Source: a virus | Taxonomy: Duplodnaviria; Caudoviricetes | Virus record (IMG/VR): IMGVR_UViG_3300031152_000004 | Location: 1 to 55,611 of that record | Direction: 5' to 3' (one strand) | DNA length: 55,611 bases | In this document: positions 3,165-11,827 of the stretch, one piece after another | How the letters are laid out: each line of letters begins with the position of its first letter | How positions within the stretch are numbered: the first letter of the stretch is position 1 | The notes under the pieces: model-generated | Database searches by the model: none | Seen by the model: only the letters and a program-made list of their open reading frames with translations | Told to the model about the DNA's origin: nothing | Position numbers and translations under genes: made by a program

Positions 3165-3362
3165 GTGACTAAGAGTAAAGAAGCACTGCGGCTGGCGGCC
3201 CAGTCGACCTGGCTGGACCGGCGGATCAGCTACGCCCAGGAGCAGGTCGAGGCGCACCAGCGGCGGATCGCCGGCTGGCAGGCGGAGAAGGAGGAGACCG
3301 ACCGGCGGATCCGGGAGCTTGACGAAGAGACAAATACTACGGAAGGATCGTCGGGTGCCTAA
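3165..3362 (+). CDS. Hypothetical coiled-coil protein, 65 aa
   Basis: GAGAGGA RBS; overlaps the polymerase start. Confidence 0.6.
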   Translation: MTKSKEALRLAAQSTWLDRRISYAQEQVEAHQRRIAGWQAEKEETDRRIRELDEETNTTEGSSGA

Positions 3363-5394
3363 GACGCGGAGCGAGGTGGTCCAGTTGGCTCAGCGGGGCT
3401 GGCTGCCCTCGTCGTTACCGGACGTGATGGGTGAGGTGTCGTGTGACACGGAGACGTCGGGGCTGTTCGCCGACGACGGGGCGCGGACCTCGACCGTCTC
3501 GGTCGCCTGGTGGGACCACGCCTGCTCGCTGTCGGTGTTCCGCGGGTCGGGGACGCCCTGGGGTGACGCCCTGGACGCCGGAGGCTCGCCCGACTGGGTG
3601 TTCTGTGAGTCGGACGACTGCGTCCGGTCCGCGGCGTTCCCGTTCGATCAGGGGACCGAAGGGAAGCCGGAGGACAACGGGCAGGGCTCGCTGTTCGACT
3701 CGGACGTGAACCTGCCCCGGGCCGAGTGGGACACGCTCCTGTCGTGGCTATCGGCCCGGCCGCTGGTGTTCCACAACGCCCCGTTCGACCTGGAGAAGCT
3801 ACGGGTCGGGACCCGACTGTGGCCCGGGCGGGAGCTGGAGCACGCGTTCTGGTGGGACACCCAGACCGGCTGCAAGGAGCTGTGGCCCCTGTCGGGTACG
3901 ACCTCACTGAAGCCGACCGCCGAGCGGCTGTGGCCCGGAACCGGCATGCGCGAGTACGAACAGCGGATCAAGACCTACCTGACCCGCAACAAGCTACCGG
4001 CGGGCCGCTACGACCTGATCCCGTGGGACATCCTGGGGCCCTACGCTGACATGGACGCCCGGCAGACCCTACGTCTACGCGCCAGGCAGGCTCGAGTTCT
4101 TTGGGAGGGCAGCGGAGTACCGTCATGGTGCCATCGGGAGTTCGCCCTGGGCAAGATCCTGTACCGGATGACGCGCCGCGGGGTGCCGTACGACGCCCCA
4201 GCATCCCTGGCTGCAGCCGCCCAGATCCAGCAGGTCCGGGCCAAGATCGCCGCCGGACTGCCATTCGTCCCCAACACCCCGGCGGCCAAGAAATACTTCT
4301 TCGGGGTGGGTCGCACCGCTAAGGGGCAGCCCTGCCTAAACTTGCCCCCCTATGCCGTCACCGAGAAGAACAGGGAACCCCAGCTGACCGCTGAGATCCT
4401 CGACCGGATGGTCAAAGTCCAGGTTCCATACGCCGGGGAGTACGCCTCCTGGTCCCAGCTGGAGACCGCCGAGTCGATGTGGTACCGCGGCTACGCCGAG
4501 AAGATCGGGACCGACGGCCGGCTACGCGCCTCCTTCCGGCAGGTCAAGGTCGTATCCGGGCGTTACTCGGCCGAACGGGTGCAGCTGCACGCCATCCCAC
4601 ACGACTACCGCCTGACCTCCTACTCGCTGCTGGAAGGGATCCCCACCCCCCGGGCGATGATCTGCTCGGCGGTCGCCCGGCTGACCGGCTGGAGCCTGTG
4701 GGAGCTGGACTGGGCCCAGGCGGAACTGCGCGCCGCCGCGGTCACCGCCGGCTGCACCCGGATGCTCGAGGCTTTCTCCCTGGGGACGGACCTGCACGGG
4801 TACACCGCGACCGAGCTGTTCCACACCGACCCCTCGTCCGTCCGGTGGCCGCTGATCCGGCAGGTCGGCAAGCGGGCGAACTTCACGCTGTGTTTCGGGG
4901 CCGGCTGGCCCACCTTCCAGGCGATGGTCCGCAAGGAGACCGGGGTCCTGATCGAGGACGAGGAAGCCGAGCGGGTCGTCACCGACTGGAACGGGCTATA
5001 CCCCGAGTATGAGCGGGCCAGCCGCAGGTGGGCACGCAGGGCCGACATCGACCGGCGGGTGCGGCTGATCAACGGCCGCCAGCGGTGGTTCCGAGAGGAC
5101 GAGTACACCCACAAGGCGTTCAACCAGTACATTCAGGCGTCCCTGGCCGAACTCGGTAAGGACCTGATGCTGGAGGTCGAGGAGCGGATGCAGGACGCCG
5201 GCATACCCCAACTCGGAATCTCATCCGGGATCGGGGAGGCCGGGATGCTGCTGACCGTGCACGACTCGGTCCTACTGCTGCTGCCGGACGACCGGGCTCC
5301 CTCGATCGTCGCCGGCATTTGCGCCTGGGGGTCGGACTACGGTACCCGGATGTTCAAGGTCCCGATGCTGCTAGAGGCGAAGAGGTGGTCATGA
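3355..5394 (+). CDS. Family A DNA polymerase with 3'-5' exonuclease and no 5'-3' exonuclease (DpoZ candidate), 679 aa
   Basis: ExoI CDTETSG, ExoII FHNAPFD, ExoIII YADMDA; motif A LDWAQAELR, motif B RQVGKRANFTLCFG, motif C TVHDS; close to purZ. Confidence 0.9.
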   Translation: MPKTRSEVVQLAQRGWLPSSLPDVMGEVSCDTETSGLFADDGARTSTVSVAWWDHACSLSVFRGSGTPWGDALDAGGSPDWVFCESDDCVRSAAFPFDQGTEGKPEDNGQGSLFDSDVNLPRAEWDTLLSWLSARPLVFHNAPFDLEKLRVGTRLWPGRELEHAFWWDTQTGCKELWPLSGTTSLKPTAERLWPGTGMREYEQRIKTYLTRNKLPAGRYDLIPWDILGPYADMDARQTLRLRARQARVLWEGSGVPSWCHREFALGKILYRMTRRGVPYDAPASLAAAAQIQQVRAKIAAGLPFVPNTPAAKKYFFGVGRTAKGQPCLNLPPYAVTEKNREPQLTAEILDRMVKVQVPYAGEYASWSQLETAESMWYRGYAEKIGTDGRLRASFRQVKVVSGRYSAERVQLHAIPHDYRLTSYSLLEGIPTPRAMICSAVARLTGWSLWELDWAQAELRAAAVTAGCTRMLEAFSLGTDLHGYTATELFHTDPSSVRWPLIRQVGKRANFTLCFGAGWPTFQAMVRKETGVLIEDEEAERVVTDWNGLYPEYERASRRWARRADIDRRVRLINGRQRWFREDEYTHKAFNQYIQASLAELGKDLMLEVEERMQDAGIPQLGISSGIGEAGMLLTVHDSVLLLLPDDRAPSIVAGICAWGSDYGTRMFKVPMLLEAKRWS

Positions 5395-5552
5395 AGCTAC
5401 GATTGCAGCTGATCCCGGACGACGGGACGACCGTGTATCAGAAAGTGCTGGAACCGGTCGACCCGCAGGACCCGGGACTAGAGTACGACCTGCCCCAGGC
5501 GGTCGCTGACCTGGACCGGCAGTACCAACGAGACAAGGAGAAGCGCGGATGA
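5391..5552 (+). CDS. Hypothetical protein, 53 aa
   Basis: ATGA overlaps with both neighbours (MKLRLQLIPDDG...). Confidence 0.6.
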   Translation: MKLRLQLIPDDGTTVYQKVLEPVDPQDPGLEYDLPQAVADLDRQYQRDKEKRG

Positions 5553-6634
5553 AGCTGAGCGTCGTAGTCGGAGGGCAGTACGGGTCCGAGGGGAAAGGCG
5601 CTGTCGCCGGGCACCTCGCCGCGCGGTCCGAACAGCCCGTAGTCGCAATCCGGGTCGCCGGGCCGAACGCTGGGCACACCGTCTACGGCCGATGCCCCGG
5701 ACAGGTGTGTGGCCTCCAGGACGGCCACCTGGACTCGCTTCCGGTCGGTGAGGGACACCCCTGGAAGCTGCGGCAGGTGCCGGTCGCCGCGGTGACCCGA
5801 CCTGATGCGGTCCTGGTCATCGCCGCCGGGTCCGAGGTCGACCTGGCCGTACTGGAAGCGGAAGTAGCGGCCCTGGACTCGGCCGGGTACGACGCCTCCT
5901 CACGGCTGATGGTCGACTTCCAGGCATCGGTGATCGACCCCGGCTTCCTGGAATCGGAAGCTGAGCTGGTCGCCCGGATCGGGTCCACCGGGAAAGGCGT
6001 CGGCAAGACCCGGGCCGCCCGTATCATGAGGACCTGCGACCTGTACGGGACCAGGAGACGTTGGGCGGTACGTGACGCCTGGCAGGCCATCGCCGGCCCG
6101 GTTCACGTCATCGTCGAAGGGACCCAGGGCTACGCACTCGGGTTGCACGCCGGCTGGTACCCGTACTGTACCTCCAGCGACTGCCGCGCCATCGACTTCA
6201 TGTCCATGGCGGGGATCCCGCCCCAGGCAGCCGACGTGTGGGTCGTACTGCGGACCTGGCCCATCCGCGTCGCCGGTACCAGCGGGCCCATGCACCAGGA
6301 GGTCACCTGGGACGTCGTCGGACAGCCAGTCGAAAGAACGACCGTGACCAACAAGGTCCGCCGGGTCGGGCGCTGGGACCGCGACCTCGCCCGCGCTGCC
6401 GTCAAAGCCAACGGCCGGTGCAAGGTCGCGCTGACCATGGTCGACTACGACCTGCCGTTCCTGGCTGGGGAAACCGGAAGCTACGGCGCCTGGGCCGCTG
6501 CCGCCGGGATGACCTACGGGCCCGGCATCGACCCGGTGGTCCTGGCCGAGAAGTACCTCGCCACCGTCGAATCGGACTGCGGCGCACCTATCCGGCTGGT
6601 CGGTACCGGCCCCGACACGATCCTGGAGCGGTGA
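5549..6634 (+). CDS. purZ: Diaminopurine (2-aminoadenine) synthetase PurZ, PurZ0-like, 361 aa
   Basis: PurA-fold motifs GGQYGSEGKG (Ser in place of the PurA catalytic Asp), GPNAGHT, IGSTGKG, EGTQG, YPYCTS, PIRVAG.SGP, TTVTNKVRR, LTMVD, GTGP; short archaeal-type length; near a family A polymerase. Confidence 0.88.
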   Translation: MKLSVVVGGQYGSEGKGAVAGHLAARSEQPVVAIRVAGPNAGHTVYGRCPGQVCGLQDGHLDSLPVGEGHPWKLRQVPVAAVTRPDAVLVIAAGSEVDLAVLEAEVAALDSAGYDASSRLMVDFQASVIDPGFLESEAELVARIGSTGKGVGKTRAARIMRTCDLYGTRRRWAVRDAWQAIAGPVHVIVEGTQGYALGLHAGWYPYCTSSDCRAIDFMSMAGIPPQAADVWVVLRTWPIRVAGTSGPMHQEVTWDVVGQPVERTTVTNKVRRVGRWDRDLARAAVKANGRCKVALTMVDYDLPFLAGETGSYGAWAAAAGMTYGPGIDPVVLAEKYLATVESDCGAPIRLVGTGPDTILER

Positions 6635-6635
6635 C

Positions 6636-7004
6636 GTGCAGGAGAACCCGAACGCCACCGACCTGGTGGAGGCCATCAACCGGCTGACCGAGTGGTGGGA
6701 GAAGCTGGCCCAGCAGGACATCAACGCGACTGTCCCCAAGGCTGTCGAATACGGCGCCTACGACCTGGACATCATGGGGCAGGCCATGGTCGCCCTGGCC
6801 GACGGCATGTGGACCGGCGCCACCCAGGAGGAGCGCCTCGCGATCGGGCGGGAAATGGCCTGCGCGTTCTACCTGCTCGGAAAGACCGCCCGGATCTTCT
6901 CCGCCTTCCAGCGGGGCGAACGGCCTTCGGACGACACCTGGCTGGACGTCACCGTCTACTCGGTGATGGCCCGGCGGATCCGCCAGACCGGGATGTGGCC
7001 GTGA
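6636..7004 (+). CDS. All-alpha NTP pyrophosphohydrolase-like protein (DUF1599/Nmad1-like; possible MazZ analogue), 122 aa
   Basis: K..EYG, GK.AR and DDTWLD...Y pattern resembles DUF1599/MazG-superfamily motifs; directly downstream of purZ. Confidence 0.55.
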   Translation: MQENPNATDLVEAINRLTEWWEKLAQQDINATVPKAVEYGAYDLDIMGQAMVALADGMWTGATQEERLAIGREMACAFYLLGKTARIFSAFQRGERPSDDTWLDVTVYSVMARRIRQTGMWP

Positions 7005-7234
7005 AGATCACCATCTACCGGACCGCGGCCGTCGACCCCGCCATCCTCGCCGAGATCCCCAGCGCCGTCATCGAACACGAGCACGACAGCCTGACCTGGC
7101 GGGTAGAAGCCGGGGTACTGTTGGTGACCCGGCCGCCCGTCGGCTACGGTGACGGGCAATACCCCGCCCTCAAGCTGACCTGGGGGTACCCGACAAACGC
7201 CATCGACCGGTTCGAGATACGGGAGCGACCATGA
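7001..7234 (+). CDS. Hypothetical protein, 77 aa
   Basis: GTGA/ATGA coupled overlaps; MKITIYRTAAVD... Confidence 0.6.
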   Translation: MKITIYRTAAVDPAILAEIPSAVIEHEHDSLTWRVEAGVLLVTRPPVGYGDGQYPALKLTWGYPTNAIDRFEIRERP

Positions 7235-7485
7235 CCGTACTGACCCAGACGACCGACCTGCTGAAGCACGACGGGTGGACCTTCCACCGCGAAGGCGAAC
7301 TCATCTCGCCCGACGCGAAATGGATCGTCAAGACGGGTTACGCTAGCTTCGAGTCATACTTGCAAATACAAAAACCTGGCCACCCGCCCGTCCTGATCGA
7401 ACACCTGCGCCTGCGAGAAGACCACGACGGGTTGCCCGCGGTGCTGACCTGGCTGGCCGGCTGGGGGATCTACCTTGGCCCGTAA
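7231..7485 (+). CDS. Hypothetical protein, 84 aa
   Basis: Coupled start with GGGAG RBS. Confidence 0.6.
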   Translation: MTVLTQTTDLLKHDGWTFHREGELISPDAKWIVKTGYASFESYLQIQKPGHPPVLIEHLRLREDHDGLPAVLTWLAGWGIYLGP

Positions 7486-7687
7486 GCCGGCGCCACGCGG
7501 GATGGCCGGGTGGACCACCGAGGTTGCCCAGCGCGGGGCCGGCTGCCAATACCGGGCCGGCCCCTACACCTGCTGGCGCCGGAACCCCGTCCACCAAGGG
7601 GCGCACTACGACCTGGACCGGCACGAGTGGTTCGGCAAGGTTGGCAGGACCGTGGAACACTACCCAGCCGGGAAGGAAACCAAGTGA
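7475..7687 (+). CDS. Small Cys/His protein, 70 aa
   Basis: C-x8-C-x5-H-x3-H pattern; stop overlaps the next GTG. Confidence 0.5.
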   Translation: MARKPAPRGMAGWTTEVAQRGAGCQYRAGPYTCWRRNPVHQGAHYDLDRHEWFGKVGRTVEHYPAGKETK

Positions 7688-8544
7688 GATTCGTCTACCT
7701 CGCCCAGCCGATCGACCTGGTAGGAGCCGACGACCCGACCCAGCTGACCTGGCTGGCCCAGGACGTCAAGGCCGCCCTGGTTAAAACCGGCATCGGCTGG
7801 TACGACCCGCAAGCAGCCTGGCGCACCCCGGCCGGCCTCCAGGTCGGGCGGGAGGTCCGGCAGGTCAACCTGTGGGCACAGGGCCGTTGCGAGGGAATGA
7901 TCGCCCTCCTGCCCGACAACGTCCCCAGTGCCGGTGTTCCGATCGAGATCGAACGCGCGATGGTCCAATGGGACCAGCCCGTGGCCATCCTCGGCGGGAC
8001 CCAGCGCTGGGCGCTGCCCCCGAACGGGCGCCGCGCCTACTTCAACCTGGACGCCGTCGCCGCGGTCGAGTGGCTGGCCGACCAGCAGGTGCCGCAGATC
8101 CCCCGCCCGGACCCGTTCAGCGTCAAGCTCCTGAGCCCCGCCGGGAAGCTCCCGACCAAGACCCACGCTGACGACGCCGGGTACGACCTGTACGTCTCCG
8201 AACGGGTCACCATCCCCGCCGGCCAGTTCCGCGACGTCCCGTGCGGAATCGCCATCCAGCTGCCGGACCGCTGCTGGGGGATGATCGTCGGCAGGAGCAG
8301 CACCATCCGCAAGCGGGGCCTGCTGGTCCAGCCCGGCGTGATCGACACCGGCTGGCGCGGCGAGCTGTTCGCCGCCGTCCAGCACTTGGGGGGTGGGCCG
8401 CCCACGGTGATCGAGGCCGGCGACCGAATCGCCCAGCTGCTGATATTCGACAACACGTCGATGCGACTCGGCCCACCCCAGGAGGTCAACGAGCTGGAGG
8501 CCCACGCCCGCGGCATCAACGGATTCGGGTCCAGCGGCCTGTAG
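7684..8544 (+). CDS. Fusion of a nucleoside 2-deoxyribosyltransferase/DNPH1(RCL)-like N-glycosidase domain and a trimeric dUTPase-like domain, 286 aa
   Basis: N-terminal VYLAQPI...SAGVPIEIERA (S-x-G-x3-E); C-terminal AGYDL, GRSS, GVIDTGWRG, GDRIAQL and RG.NGFGSSG; GTG start after GGAAGGA. Confidence 0.8.
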   Translation: MRFVYLAQPIDLVGADDPTQLTWLAQDVKAALVKTGIGWYDPQAAWRTPAGLQVGREVRQVNLWAQGRCEGMIALLPDNVPSAGVPIEIERAMVQWDQPVAILGGTQRWALPPNGRRAYFNLDAVAAVEWLADQQVPQIPRPDPFSVKLLSPAGKLPTKTHADDAGYDLYVSERVTIPAGQFRDVPCGIAIQLPDRCWGMIVGRSSTIRKRGLLVQPGVIDTGWRGELFAAVQHLGGGPPTVIEAGDRIAQLLIFDNTSMRLGPPQEVNELEAHARGINGFGSSGL

Positions 8545-8590: not shown

Positions 8591-9286
8591 ATGCCGAAGG
8601 CTACGCCGGACCGCGGCGCAGATGGGAATATCCGACCTGAGCTGAAGGCTGTCAAGCAGAGGTTCTGCGGGGGGAGGAAGGCCAACCGCGGGCCGGAGGC
8701 ACCGACCTGCAAGCAGCCAGCCGGTTACGGCACCGACCACCCTGGCTGGGGTCACTGCGCCTGGCACTTCGGGCAGTCCCCCAGCGGGAAGCAGTACGCC
8801 GAGAAGGTCCGGACCGAGGCCCACGCCTGGCGCGCCGCGCTGGACCTGGGCATCTCGGTCGACACCACGCCGGAACGTGCGCTGGCGGACGAGATCAACC
8901 GGTCGGCCGGGCTGGTCGCCTGGATCCAGGACCAGATCCAGCACGCCTGGCCCACCGATGACGACGGCCTGGTCGAGGTCGAATACTTCGACGCACTGGG
9001 CGTCCCGCGCAAGGCTAAGGTTACGCCGCTGGCGGCACTAACCTCCCACCCGGCGACCCGGGCCGTGATGGAGGCGTACCGGGACGAGCGCGCCCACCTC
9101 GCCCGGGTCGCCAAGATGGGCGTCGATGCCAACCTGGTCGACCGCCAGCTGAAGCTGGACGGCCAGCGCGTCGACCTGATGTCCGGCCTGATCGCAGCGA
9201 TCATCACAGACCTCGGTCACGACCCGAACGACAACCAGGTGCGGGCAGTCGTGTCCCGCCGGCTGCTCGCCATTACTGCATCTTGA
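8591..9286 (+). CDS. terS: Terminase small subunit (putative)
   Basis: CGG...C...AG.GTDHPG.G.C..H Zn-binding N-terminus plus helical C-terminus; upstream of the large terminase. Confidence 0.65.
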   Translation: MPKATPDRGADGNIRPELKAVKQRFCGGRKANRGPEAPTCKQPAGYGTDHPGWGHCAWHFGQSPSGKQYAEKVRTEAHAWRAALDLGISVDTTPERALADEINRSAGLVAWIQDQIQHAWPTDDDGLVEVEYFDALGVPRKAKVTPLAALTSHPATRAVMEAYRDERAHLARVAKMGVDANLVDRQLKLDGQRVDLMSGLIAAIITDLGHDPNDNQVRAVVSRRLLAITAS

Positions 9287-10129: not shown

Positions 10130-10380
10130 CGAGAATGGGACCTAGCCGAACCCGGAAGGTGCTGCGGTTCCGTAGCCGGGTCGAGCGGGTCGTGCAGTAC
10201 GGCCGGCCCGAAGACGACTTCGCGACCCACCTCACCGTCGCAGACTGGGAGGACCTGGGACGCCCGGACGAGATTACCGTCACAGTAGAACCCGGGGACC
10301 AGCTGAATAACGAGGCGCGGCTGGACAGTGAGGCCATAGCCCTGGCCAAGGTGTGGCAGGATGCCGTCGACGGTAAGTAA
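10126..10380 (+). CDS. Hypothetical protein, 84 aa
   Basis: GGGAGG RBS; W..LG.P..I.VTVEPG motif. Confidence 0.6.
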   Translation: MTRMGPSRTRKVLRFRSRVERVVQYGRPEDDFATHLTVADWEDLGRPDEITVTVEPGDQLNNEARLDSEAIALAKVWQDAVDGK

Positions 10381-11827
10381 GGACTTGACCGCCCTGGCAG
10401 GCCTGTGGGGTCCGCGGGTCGACTACGCCGCGGACCCCACCCGCTGGGTCACCGAGCGGATCGGCGCGTTCCTGTGGTCGGTCCAGCGTCGGGTCATGGA
10501 GCTGGTCCGGGACCACCGGTACGTGGCCGTCCCGTCCTGTCACGACGCCGGCAAGAGCTACCTGGCCGCTGCGATCGCCTGTTGGTGGCTGGACTCCCAC
10601 ACGGTCGGCGAGGCGTTCGTGGTGACCACCGCCCCCACCGACGCCCAGGTTAAGGCCATCCTGTGGCGCGAGATCGGCAAGATGCAGCGCGCCGGGGGGC
10701 TGGCGGGGAAGGTGACCAAGCAGGCCCACTGGTATATGGGCCCGGACAACGTCGAGCTGGTCGCCTACGGCCGGAAGCCCGCCGACCACGTCTCCCACGA
10801 GGAAGCCGCTGCGTCGTTCTCCGGGATCCACGCCAGGTACGTCCTGATCATCCTGGACGAGGCCGGCGGCATCCCGGTCTGGCTGTACAACGCGGTGGAC
10901 ACCCTCGCCACGAACGTACACTGTCGGGTGCTGGCGATCGGCAACCCGGACGACCCCGGTAGCCAGTTCGCTAAGGTGTGCGCGCCCGGGTCCGGGTGGA
11001 CCGTCCAGCCGATCTCCGCCTTCGATACCCCGAACTTCACGGACGAGGCCGTCCCGGAGTACCTGAACGACCTGCTGATCTCCAAGGTCTGGGTGCAGGA
11101 GCGCAAGAAGCGCTGGGGCGAGAAGAACCCGCTGTATCAGTCGAAGGTGCTGGGCCTGTTCCCGGAGGTCGGAGACCACAACCTGATTCAACCCGCCTGG
11201 GTCCTGGCCGCACAGAACCGCTCCATTGTGCCCAACCAGTTCGACTCGGTCCTGGGGGTAGACGTCGCCAGGTTCGGGTCGGACGAGACCTGCGGCTACC
11301 TGCGGCAGGGCAACCACATCCGGCGGGTGTTCTCCGGGCACGGCTGGCCGACCACCGAGACCACCGGCAAGGTCAAACAGTTCATCTTCGGCAACACCCA
11401 CCCGGTGCGCGCCCAGGTGGACGACGTCGGGGTCGGCGGGGGGGTGCTGGACCAGCTGGTGGAGGACGGGTTCGACGCGGTCGGATTGAACGGCGGGTCC
11501 ACCTGCAAGCAGAAGCTTAAGGACGGTCGCAACCGCTTCGTCAACGCCCGGTCGGAGTGGTACTGGGAGCTGCGCGGGAAGCTACAGGACGGCGAGATCG
11601 ACCTGGACCCTGAGGACGACGACCTGGCCGCCCAGCTGGTGGACATCCGCTGGGGGACGAACTCGAAAGGCCAGATCTGGGTCGAGGCCAAAGAGGACAT
11701 GAAGGCGCGCGGGGTGGACTCGCCGGACCGGGCGGACGCCGTGGTCTACTCCAACGCGACAGCGCACCAGGCGCAGCCGGTCGCCCGGACCCAGATCCGG
11801 GACCGGCGCCTGGCCGGCCGGCGCTGA
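10361..11827 (+). CDS. terL: Terminase large subunit
   Basis: Walker A SCHDAGKS, Walker B LIILDEA, IGNP coupling motif, RNase H-like GVDVARFGSD and SPDRADA. Confidence 0.93.
   Translation: MPSTVSKDLTALAGLWGPRVDYAADPTRWVTERIGAFLWSVQRRVMELVRDHRYVAVPSCHDAGKSYLAAAIACWWLDSHTVGEAFVVTTAPTDAQVKAILWREIGKMQRAGGLAGKVTKQAHWYMGPDNVELVAYGRKPADHVSHEEAAASFSGIHARYVLIILDEAGGIPVWLYNAVDTLATNVHCRVLAIGNPDDPGSQFAKVCAPGSGWTVQPISAFDTPNFTDEAVPEYLNDLLISKVWVQERKKRWGEKNPLYQSKVLGLFPEVGDHNLIQPAWVLAAQNRSIVPNQFDSVLGVDVARFGSDETCGYLRQGNHIRRVFSGHGWPTTETTGKVKQFIFGNTHPVRAQVDDVGVGGGVLDQLVEDGFDAVGLNGGSTCKQKLKDGRNRFVNARSEWYWELRGKLQDGEIDLDPEDDDLAAQLVDIRWGTNSKGQIWVEAKEDMKARGVDSPDRADAVVYSNATAHQAQPVARTQIRDRRLAGRR

Follow-up and report, generated by a model that had tools for sequence, protein, structure and literature searches.

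What does a protein do that joins a putative nucleotide glycosidase to a dUTPase-like domain and is encoded close to a purZ gene? The question is raised by the gene at 7684..8544 of IMG/VR virus record IMGVR_UViG_3300031152_000004, a caudoviricete sequence of 55,611 bases and 68.5% G+C that was used as the complete record and is called the window here. A first-pass annotation had proposed that the protein drains dATP in two steps, from dATP to dAMP and on to adenine, in place of the enzyme DatZ. By sequence comparison the protein is an orthologue of the DmtZ-DutZ fusion of Arthrobacter phage Wayne, a system that was itself already published in February 2026, and we estimate the probability at roughly 85% that it is an active bifunctional DmtZ-DutZ of a PurZ0-type phage building 2-aminoadenine (Z) DNA. 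The gene and its parts are:

7684..8544, plus strand: dmtZ-dutZ fusion gene, 286 codons plus stop, GTG start, with a full-length tblastn match to Wayne-type gp53
7684..8091, plus strand: DmtZ domain, residues 1-136, a predicted dAMP N-glycosidase / deoxyribose-5-phosphate transferase of the nucleoside 2-deoxyribosyltransferase (NDT) superfamily (AlphaFold2, VIA-align, profile)
8092..8115, plus strand: Pro-rich linker, residues 137-144, between the NDT-matched residues 1-136 and the dUTPase-matched part from 142 onward, with no regular secondary structure in the model
8116..8541, plus strand: DutZ domain, a predicted dUTPase-fold dNTP diphosphatase (Pfam PF00692, Foldseek, VIA-align, identity to Wayne-like C-domains)

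Orthology to the fusion enzyme of phage Wayne

When 50,697 phage records were searched with tblastn, gp53 of Wayne and its relatives matched over the full length with 40-41% identity (E about 1e-55). The Wayne gene aligned with the whole window protein at 40% identity (E 1e-54); the two agree in domain order, in having a linker, in the six DmtZ residues and in the dUTPase motifs, and the Wayne protein is longer (306-307 against 286 amino acids). The N-domain alone matched the Wayne gene with E 2e-12 and found 109 phage records, of which 105 were Arthrobacter, 3 Streptomyces and 1 Gordonia.

Wayne gp53 (ALY10777.1), both of its halves and the separate Ghobes proteins were purified by Poubanne et al. 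(Nucleic Acids Res. 2026, PMC12884076), and according to the main text of that paper the DutZ part converts dATP, dGTP and dUTP to monophosphates and the DmtZ part converts dAMP to adenine. The isolated Wayne C-domain made dAMP, the isolated N-domain cleaved only dAMP, and the fused enzyme turned dATP mainly into adenine (PMC12884076). This matches the two-step sink proposed in the first-pass annotation, and the behaviour that the annotation had named as speaking against it, activity strictly on dUTP and dUMP, is not what was reported for the orthologue. The orthologues concerned are 24-40% identical to the window protein, for which we infer the same activities by analogy.

The Ghobes-type Gordonia phages offer a second comparison. 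Their homologous DmtZ and DutZ domains (gp53 and gp55 in Sapo) carry the same catalytic residues and also lie beside purZ0, but they are encoded by two genes with a small open reading frame (ORF) between them rather than by the single fusion of the window. The similarity between Sapo DmtZ and the window N-domain is weak (24% identity, E 7e-3).

The N-terminal half

An AlphaFold2 model of the fusion was built on 110 fused homologues (mean predicted local distance difference test, pLDDT, 92.8; predicted template modelling score, pTM, 0.70), and in this model residues 1-136 form an alpha/beta domain with the NDT-superfamily fold. Structural comparison of these residues with VIA-align gave Z-scores of 14.2, 13.8, 13.1, 12.8 and 12.6 against the nucleoside 2-deoxyribosyltransferases 7m5h, 6evs, 7o62, 1f8x and 1s2d, 13.3 against MilB (4ohr) and 10.7 against RCL/DNPH1 (2khz). 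When a profile of 34 N-domains was compared with the PDB, solved NDTs were found with E 2e-5, DNPH1 with 0.006 and MilB with 0.36; the Tyr, Asn/Asp and Glu positions lined up with those of the solved structures, and E88 aligned with the catalytic Glu region of the solved NDTs. The N-domain alone had no match in Pfam even at E up to 10, and therefore profile and structure were needed to make the link to the superfamily. Foldseek on the whole fusion model returned dUTPases only, and the N-domain matches emerged from the exhaustive VIA-align search.

Sapo gp53, a DmtZ of the Ghobes genus that is annotated with two extra residues at its start, served to carry positions of the Ghobes enzyme over to the window. 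The residues concerned are:

7696..7716, plus strand: YLAQPID, with the triad tyrosine Y5 and the adenine-specificity aspartate D11, which align with Y6 and D12 of the Ghobes type via Sapo gp53
7807..7809, plus strand: P42, the equivalent of the water-excluding, transferase-type Pro57 of DmtZ, in an invariant column of alignment A1 and kept in 109/110 fused homologues
7867..7869, plus strand: N62, the triad Asn (Ghobes Asn77), invariant in alignment A1; 104/110 fused homologues have Asn here and 5 have D
7927..7959, plus strand: SAGVPIEIERA, with the nucleophile Glu88 (Ghobes Glu103), S82 and G84; E88 and G84 are found in 110/110 fused homologues
8008..8010, plus strand: W109, the counterpart of Trp124, a proposed lid in Ghobes DmtZ, invariant in alignment A1 (of the 110 fused homologues, 76 have W and 15 have F)

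The two strings from which the first-pass annotation had started, YLA.P and SAGVPIEIERA, are indeed present, at residues 5-9 (as YLAQP) and 82-92. Y5 is kept in 106 and D11 in all 110 of the fused homologues, so that the equivalents of the Ghobes catalytic triad Tyr6/Asn77/Glu103 are in place as Y5, N62 and E88. At position 82, 58 of the 110 homologues have Ser and 51 have Thr; the position aligns with the Asp of the solved NDT 8pqp (PPDEG), an Asp that in transferases binds the 5'-OH. All six DmtZ residues highlighted by Poubanne et al. (PMC12884076) are thus conserved here (Y5, D11, P42, N62, E88 and W109). In Ghobes DmtZ, mutants of Glu103, Tyr6 or Asp12 were inactive and N77D was weakened; Asp12 was proposed to read the 6-amino group of adenine and Trp124 to act as a lid (PMC12884076).

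The annotation had labelled the N-domain as DNPH1/RCL-like. DNPH1/Rcl and MilB share the fold of the NDT/DNPH1 superfamily and the same Glu nucleophile region with the window N-domain, and they also act on 5'-monophosphates (PMC12884076). The signature of a DNPH1/Rcl-type hydrolase is absent, however: most solved hydrolases have Asp in the triad and lack the transferase-type Pro (PMC12884076), whereas the window protein has Asn62 and Pro42. NDTs score as well as or better than RCL/DNPH1 (Z-scores 13.8-14.2 against 10.7, E 2e-5 against 0.006), a close ranking that is based on representatives only. The orthologue of the N-domain differs from DNPH1/Rcl and MilB in that it is specific for dAMP and is able both to transfer and to hydrolyse (PMC12884076).

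The C-terminal half and motif III

The second domain matched the Pfam dUTPase family PF00692 over residues 155-285 (E 8.8e-24), dUTPases in the PDB by sequence (E down to 1.4e-19) and, with residues 142-286, dUTPases by structure (VIA-align Z-scores 16-19.5). The best Foldseek matches of the fusion model were phage, Mycobacterium tuberculosis and human dUTPases. Identity was 52-56% to the C-domains of Wayne-like proteins compared with about 34-36% to solved dUTPases. Canonical trimeric dUTPases such as M. tuberculosis Dut share the fold and every motif, IDxG-aromatic-RG among them; orthologues of the window C-domain differ from them in that they also take dATP and dGTP (PMC12884076).

As the annotation had stated, all five dUTPase motifs could be located: DAGYDL at residues 164-169, GRSST at 203-207, GDRIAQL at 246-252 and RGINGFGSSG at 276-285, together with the motif that, in what we take to be the standard numbering, is the third:

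8335..8361, plus strand: motif III, GVIDTGWRG, residues 218-226, with Trp224 where most relatives have Tyr (string position and alignment of fused homologues)

The variant string and the replacement of Tyr by Trp were correctly noted, but the canonical motif is not uniformly G.ID.DYRG, since M. tuberculosis Dut reads IDAGYRG; the change of Tyr to Trp is therefore the only unusual feature of motif III in the window. Gly223 was considered as a DutZ marker and rejected, M. tuberculosis Dut having the same Gly. Trp224, which the annotation had stressed as the replacement of the Tyr that stacks on the sugar, was likewise rejected as a marker of purine specificity. Tyr occupies the position in Wayne (GIIDAGYRG), in Hiyaa and in the Ghobes-type Sapo DutZ (GVVDAGYRG), and hence in both types of DutZ that have been assayed. 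Among the 110 fused homologues the aromatic residue is Y in 76, W in 25 and F in 9, and on a FastTree tree of the fusions, rooted at the midpoint, it changes state at least 22 times. The nearest relatives of the window protein are mixed as well: those at 85% and 67% identity have W, those at 65% and 56% have Y. The occurrence of Tyr in the three reference phages, the mixture of residues among the fusions and the repeated switches indicate that Trp224 is an interchangeable aromatic residue and probably not the cause of purine acceptance. That Trp224 variants have a preference shifted away from dUTP we consider improbable. The main text of PMC12884076 is silent on the aromatic residue of motif III and never uses the word 'motif'.

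The start of the gene

The fusion gene and its two-domain build are real, far beyond chance. The reading frame that ends at 8544 is open from 7510, and the GTG at 7684 was taken as the start because a Shine-Dalgarno-like GGGAAGGAAA stretch is found 5 bases upstream of it, the G+C content at third codon positions (GC3) in this frame is 0.92 within the gene compared with 0.53 upstream of 7684, the N-termini of the homologues coincide with it in the alignment, and it overlaps, as GTGA, the stop of a small upstream ORF:

7475-7687, plus strand: small ORF of 70 amino acids, Cys/His-rich, GC3 0.86, its stop overlapping the start of the fusion gene

The overlap suggests translational coupling between this ORF and the fusion gene.

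Association with purZ

The fusion gene lies 1 kb downstream of purZ, and the genes upstream of it are:

29-2938: PrimPol-helicase (Pfam)
3319..5394, plus strand: family A DNA polymerase (PolA), a DpoZ-1 candidate (Pfam DNA_pol_A, E 2e-31; 39-40% identical to the polymerase of Wayne-like loci)
5549..6634, plus strand: purZ, PurZ0 type (Pfam PF00709, phrog_1211)

PrimPol-helicase, PolA and purZ follow each other in the same order as in Wayne, where purZ0 is likewise followed by small genes and the fusion. The best PDB match of the window PurZ was 7vf6 (E 4.3e-64), and its P-loop, GGQYGSEGKG, has Ser where archaeal PurA (2d7u, GGQWGDEGKG) has Asp. Both features of a PurZ0-type module, a PurZ with Ser for the catalytic Asp and a family A polymerase, are therefore present. 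Identity was 51% to PurZ of Streptomyces phage Galactica, about 45% to that of Microbacterium phages, about 40% to that of Arthrobacter phages and 29% to that of a Vibrio phage, a pattern that fits the PurZ0 group.

To what extent the fusion goes together with purZ was examined in metagenomic sequences. Scanning IMG/VR for the pattern of the fusion alignment yielded 167 relatives, and the best 80 loci were analysed; 62 of these matched from residue 5 or earlier through the dUTPase half, 17 matched in the dUTPase half only, and in one (L073) the match ended at the contig end. Local tblastn with the window PurZ found purZ in 74/80 loci. In the other six (L026, L061, L062, L067, L073 and L074) the dUTPase-domain match begins 66-1898 bases from the upstream contig end, which leaves too little room for purZ. 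Between purZ and the dUTPase domain the 74 loci have a median gap of 1380 bases. The annotation had held that a fusion equally common in phages without purZ would contradict its proposal, and this is not the distribution found. Similarly, all 98 PurZ0 genomes examined by Poubanne et al. have dutZ, 85 have dmtZ and 77 of those have the two fused (PMC12884076).

One locus (L070) stood out among the 74 in having purZ at 1975-2853 on the minus strand, downstream of the fusion and in opposite orientation, which may be a rearrangement or an assembly artefact.

The virion module of the window is unlike that of Wayne: its terminase (10361-11827) shares about 41% identity with the terminase of Amigo-type Arthrobacter phages. 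Given that the terminase is no closer than this, the phage appears from sequence comparison to be an actinophage without a close cultured relative, and every protein comparison with GenBank phages gave less than 60% identity. The record opens in the replication module, with the PrimPol-helicase, and runs into the terminase, whereas the replication module of Wayne forms the right genome end; the linear record is thus probably a permuted or partial representation.

Proposed mechanism and alternatives

Starting from the folds, the conservation of catalytic residues, the orthology and the purZ synteny established here, the enzyme would work as follows. The dUTPase-fold C-domain, presumably a trimer, would convert dATP, dGTP and dUTP to monophosphates and pyrophosphate. 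In the NDT-superfamily N-domain, presumably a dimer, Glu88, positioned by Tyr5 and Asn62, would attack dAMP, with Asp11 reading the 6-amino group of adenine, and adenine would be released. Transfer of the deoxyribose-5-phosphate to water would make the reaction an irreversible sink for dA, and transfer to free Z base instead would yield dZMP. The removal of dATP would let the polymerase insert Z, dGMP would be supplied to PurZ0, and dUTP would be kept low. The oligomeric states and the presence of Z in the phage DNA are part of what we infer in this scheme.

By removing dATP and supplying dGMP the fusion would do the jobs of both DatZ and MazZ of PurZ-type phages. The roles in the pathway are the same, but the folds are unrelated, DatZ being an HD domain and MazZ/DUF550 an all-alpha nucleoside triphosphate pyrophosphatase, and DatZ converts dATP to dA (PMC12884076), whereas the DmtZ-DutZ system continues to the free base. 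Neither enzyme was detected in the record, in which HD-type DatZ (PF01966, PF12917, PF13023), DUF5664 (PF18909) and DUF550 (PF04447) had no match.

Several points weigh against an active DmtZ-DutZ with these functions. The CheckV completeness estimate for the record is 76%, and a DatZ or MazZ could sit on the missing part. The window protein shares about 40% of its residues with the characterised Wayne enzyme over the full length and 31-33% within the N-domain, so that substrate preferences could differ from those of Wayne. In addition, the characterised enzymes differ, since the Wayne fusion favours dUTP by kcat (16.4 s-1 compared with 5.9 s-1 for dATP) and Ghobes DmtZ cleaves dZMP as well (PMC12884076).

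The alternative that survives best concerns the same enzyme with an N-domain that acts mainly as a transferase, making dZMP from dAMP and free Z base and thereby providing a second route to dZTP or a salvage of Z. Base exchange of this kind had been raised in the first-pass annotation and agrees with published biochemistry of the orthologue, in which a second dZTP route was proposed (PMC12884076), and the transferase-type proline is retained as P42 in nearly all fused homologues. Against this, deoxyribose-5-phosphate transfer reached about 20% in vitro, the fused Wayne enzyme turned dATP predominantly into adenine, and transfer as followed by high-performance liquid chromatography was unchanged in the P57A mutant (PMC12884076); the source of free Z base in the infected cell is also hypothetical. 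We therefore regard a mainly transferring N-domain as rather unlikely.

An ordinary housekeeping dUTPase with an accessory N-terminal domain, serving only to keep uracil out of phage DNA, is highly improbable. The five motifs, the genuine dUTPases that are the closest solved relatives, the GenBank label of the homologues (deoxyuridine triphosphatase) and the kcat of the Wayne fusion, which is highest on dUTP (PMC12884076), would all agree with such a role, but the orthologues, in contrast to E. coli Dut, are efficient in hydrolysing dATP and dGTP (PMC12884076), the catalytic residues of the N-domain are conserved, and purZ is linked in every locus with enough upstream sequence. A classical nucleoside 2-deoxyribosyltransferase acting on deoxynucleosides (e.g. 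dA base exchange) rather than on 5'-monophosphates, to which the NDTs as best sequence and structure matches and the preference of an NDT from a Z-phage metagenome for dA as donor (bioRxiv 10.1101/2025.10.22.683976) might point, can be set aside with similar confidence, given that the Wayne N-domain and Ghobes DmtZ act on dAMP (PMC12884076), that the Asp position of NDT 8pqp is Ser or Thr here, and that fusion to a dNMP-producing enzyme argues for a dNMP substrate.

The orf122 family between purZ0 and the fusion

The interval between purZ and the fusion gene was also compared between loci. The gene that directly follows purZ in the window is:

6636-7004, plus strand: orf122, a four-helix protein of 122 amino acids from an uncharacterised family

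In Wayne the same interval holds a DUF5664-1 gene, to which orf122 is unrelated (hhalign probability 0.2% between the orf122 family and DUF5664-1 of Wayne-like phages). The protein shares 34% identity with the C-terminal portion of Sapo gp51, which holds an orf122-type domain, and the same domain of roughly 100 residues ends Hiyaa gp68. In an alignment of 43 relatives K35, Y39, K83, R86, D100, D104 and Y108 were invariant. When 1.84 billion representative sequences were searched with a profile, 951 proteins matched with E no higher than 0.001, 926 of them with E no higher than 1e-10, and in the best 150 of the 951 the domain is mostly C-terminal in proteins of 121-566 amino acids.

Searches for a function gave little. 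Pfam had no family for orf122, the 43 relatives or 118 further representatives, and showed no informative partner domain in 20 longer members of the family; nor was there a PHROG for orf122. The four-helix model (pLDDT 92) had nothing below E 0.5 in a Foldseek search of the PDB, and its best Z-score in the VIA-wide search was 7.1, a level rated uninformative for helical proteins. Atlas matches were viral hypothetical clusters only, one of them with DUF1599 on 14% of its members, and the DUF6378 and DUF1599 models had no match in the window.

Among the best 80 fusion loci, the interval between purZ and dutZ contained the orf122 domain in 51, DUF5664-1 (Wayne gp51) in 14 and neither in 15, and no locus had both. 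A scan seeded with orf122 gave 25 loci, including six contigs new relative to the fusion-seeded set; the dUTPase domain was downstream in 25/25 and purZ upstream in 24, the remaining locus ending 360-414 bases upstream. Most lineages outside Arthrobacter have orf122 between purZ0 and dmtZ/dutZ, at the position where Wayne-like phages carry DUF5664-1. The main text of PMC12884076 does not mention an orf122-type gene, although its figures and supplements may show one, and the literature on PurZ0, and on PurZ with dUTPase, yielded nothing further on such a gene. That the family is a further conserved component of the purZ0 module not discussed in print is possible, and we suggest it only tentatively. 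As a guess from its position, orf122 could be a nucleotide-pool enzyme, for instance a dNTP/dNDP (pyro)phosphohydrolase, or a partner or regulator of PurZ0.

The PurZ/DatZ cluster of Vibrio phage QH was compared with the same family. Its gp23 and gp25 had no hhalign match to the orf122 family; gp23 is annotated as a DNA helicase and is only 145 amino acids long. A weak match (hhalign probability 18.8%) was obtained with gp22 (locus L109, 9313-9630), a hypothetical protein of 105 amino acids, over the C-terminal K-x-A-R ... D-x-W-x-D ... Y stretch. QH gp22 also weakly resembles DUF6378 (E 0.0085) and has 2 database relatives only, so that no profile could be built for it.

Other neighbouring genes

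The remaining genes around the fusion are:

7007-7234 and 7231-7485, plus strand: two small ORFs of 75 and 84 amino acids between orf122 and the fusion, without Pfam match
8591-9286, plus strand: a protein of 231 amino acids just downstream of the fusion (phrog_3678, function unknown, E 2e-9)

The two small ORFs had no tblastn match in any of the 80 related loci and therefore appear to be lineage-specific. Relatives of the downstream protein, with 27-31% identity, were found at or downstream of the fusion in 9/80 loci (L018, L020, L024, L032, L035, L037, L051, L071 and one more distant).

Implications

These findings extend the DmtZ-DutZ system, which was defined by experiment, to a lineage of uncultured actinophages. 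Its catalytic residues recur in more than 100 fusion proteins from metagenomes, and this supports the view that the two-step dATP sink is general among PurZ0 phages. As an explanation for purine acceptance, the aromatic residue of motif III can be dropped. A practical new lead is the orf122 family, which is closely tied to purZ0 clusters and did not occur together with DUF5664-1 in any of the examined loci.

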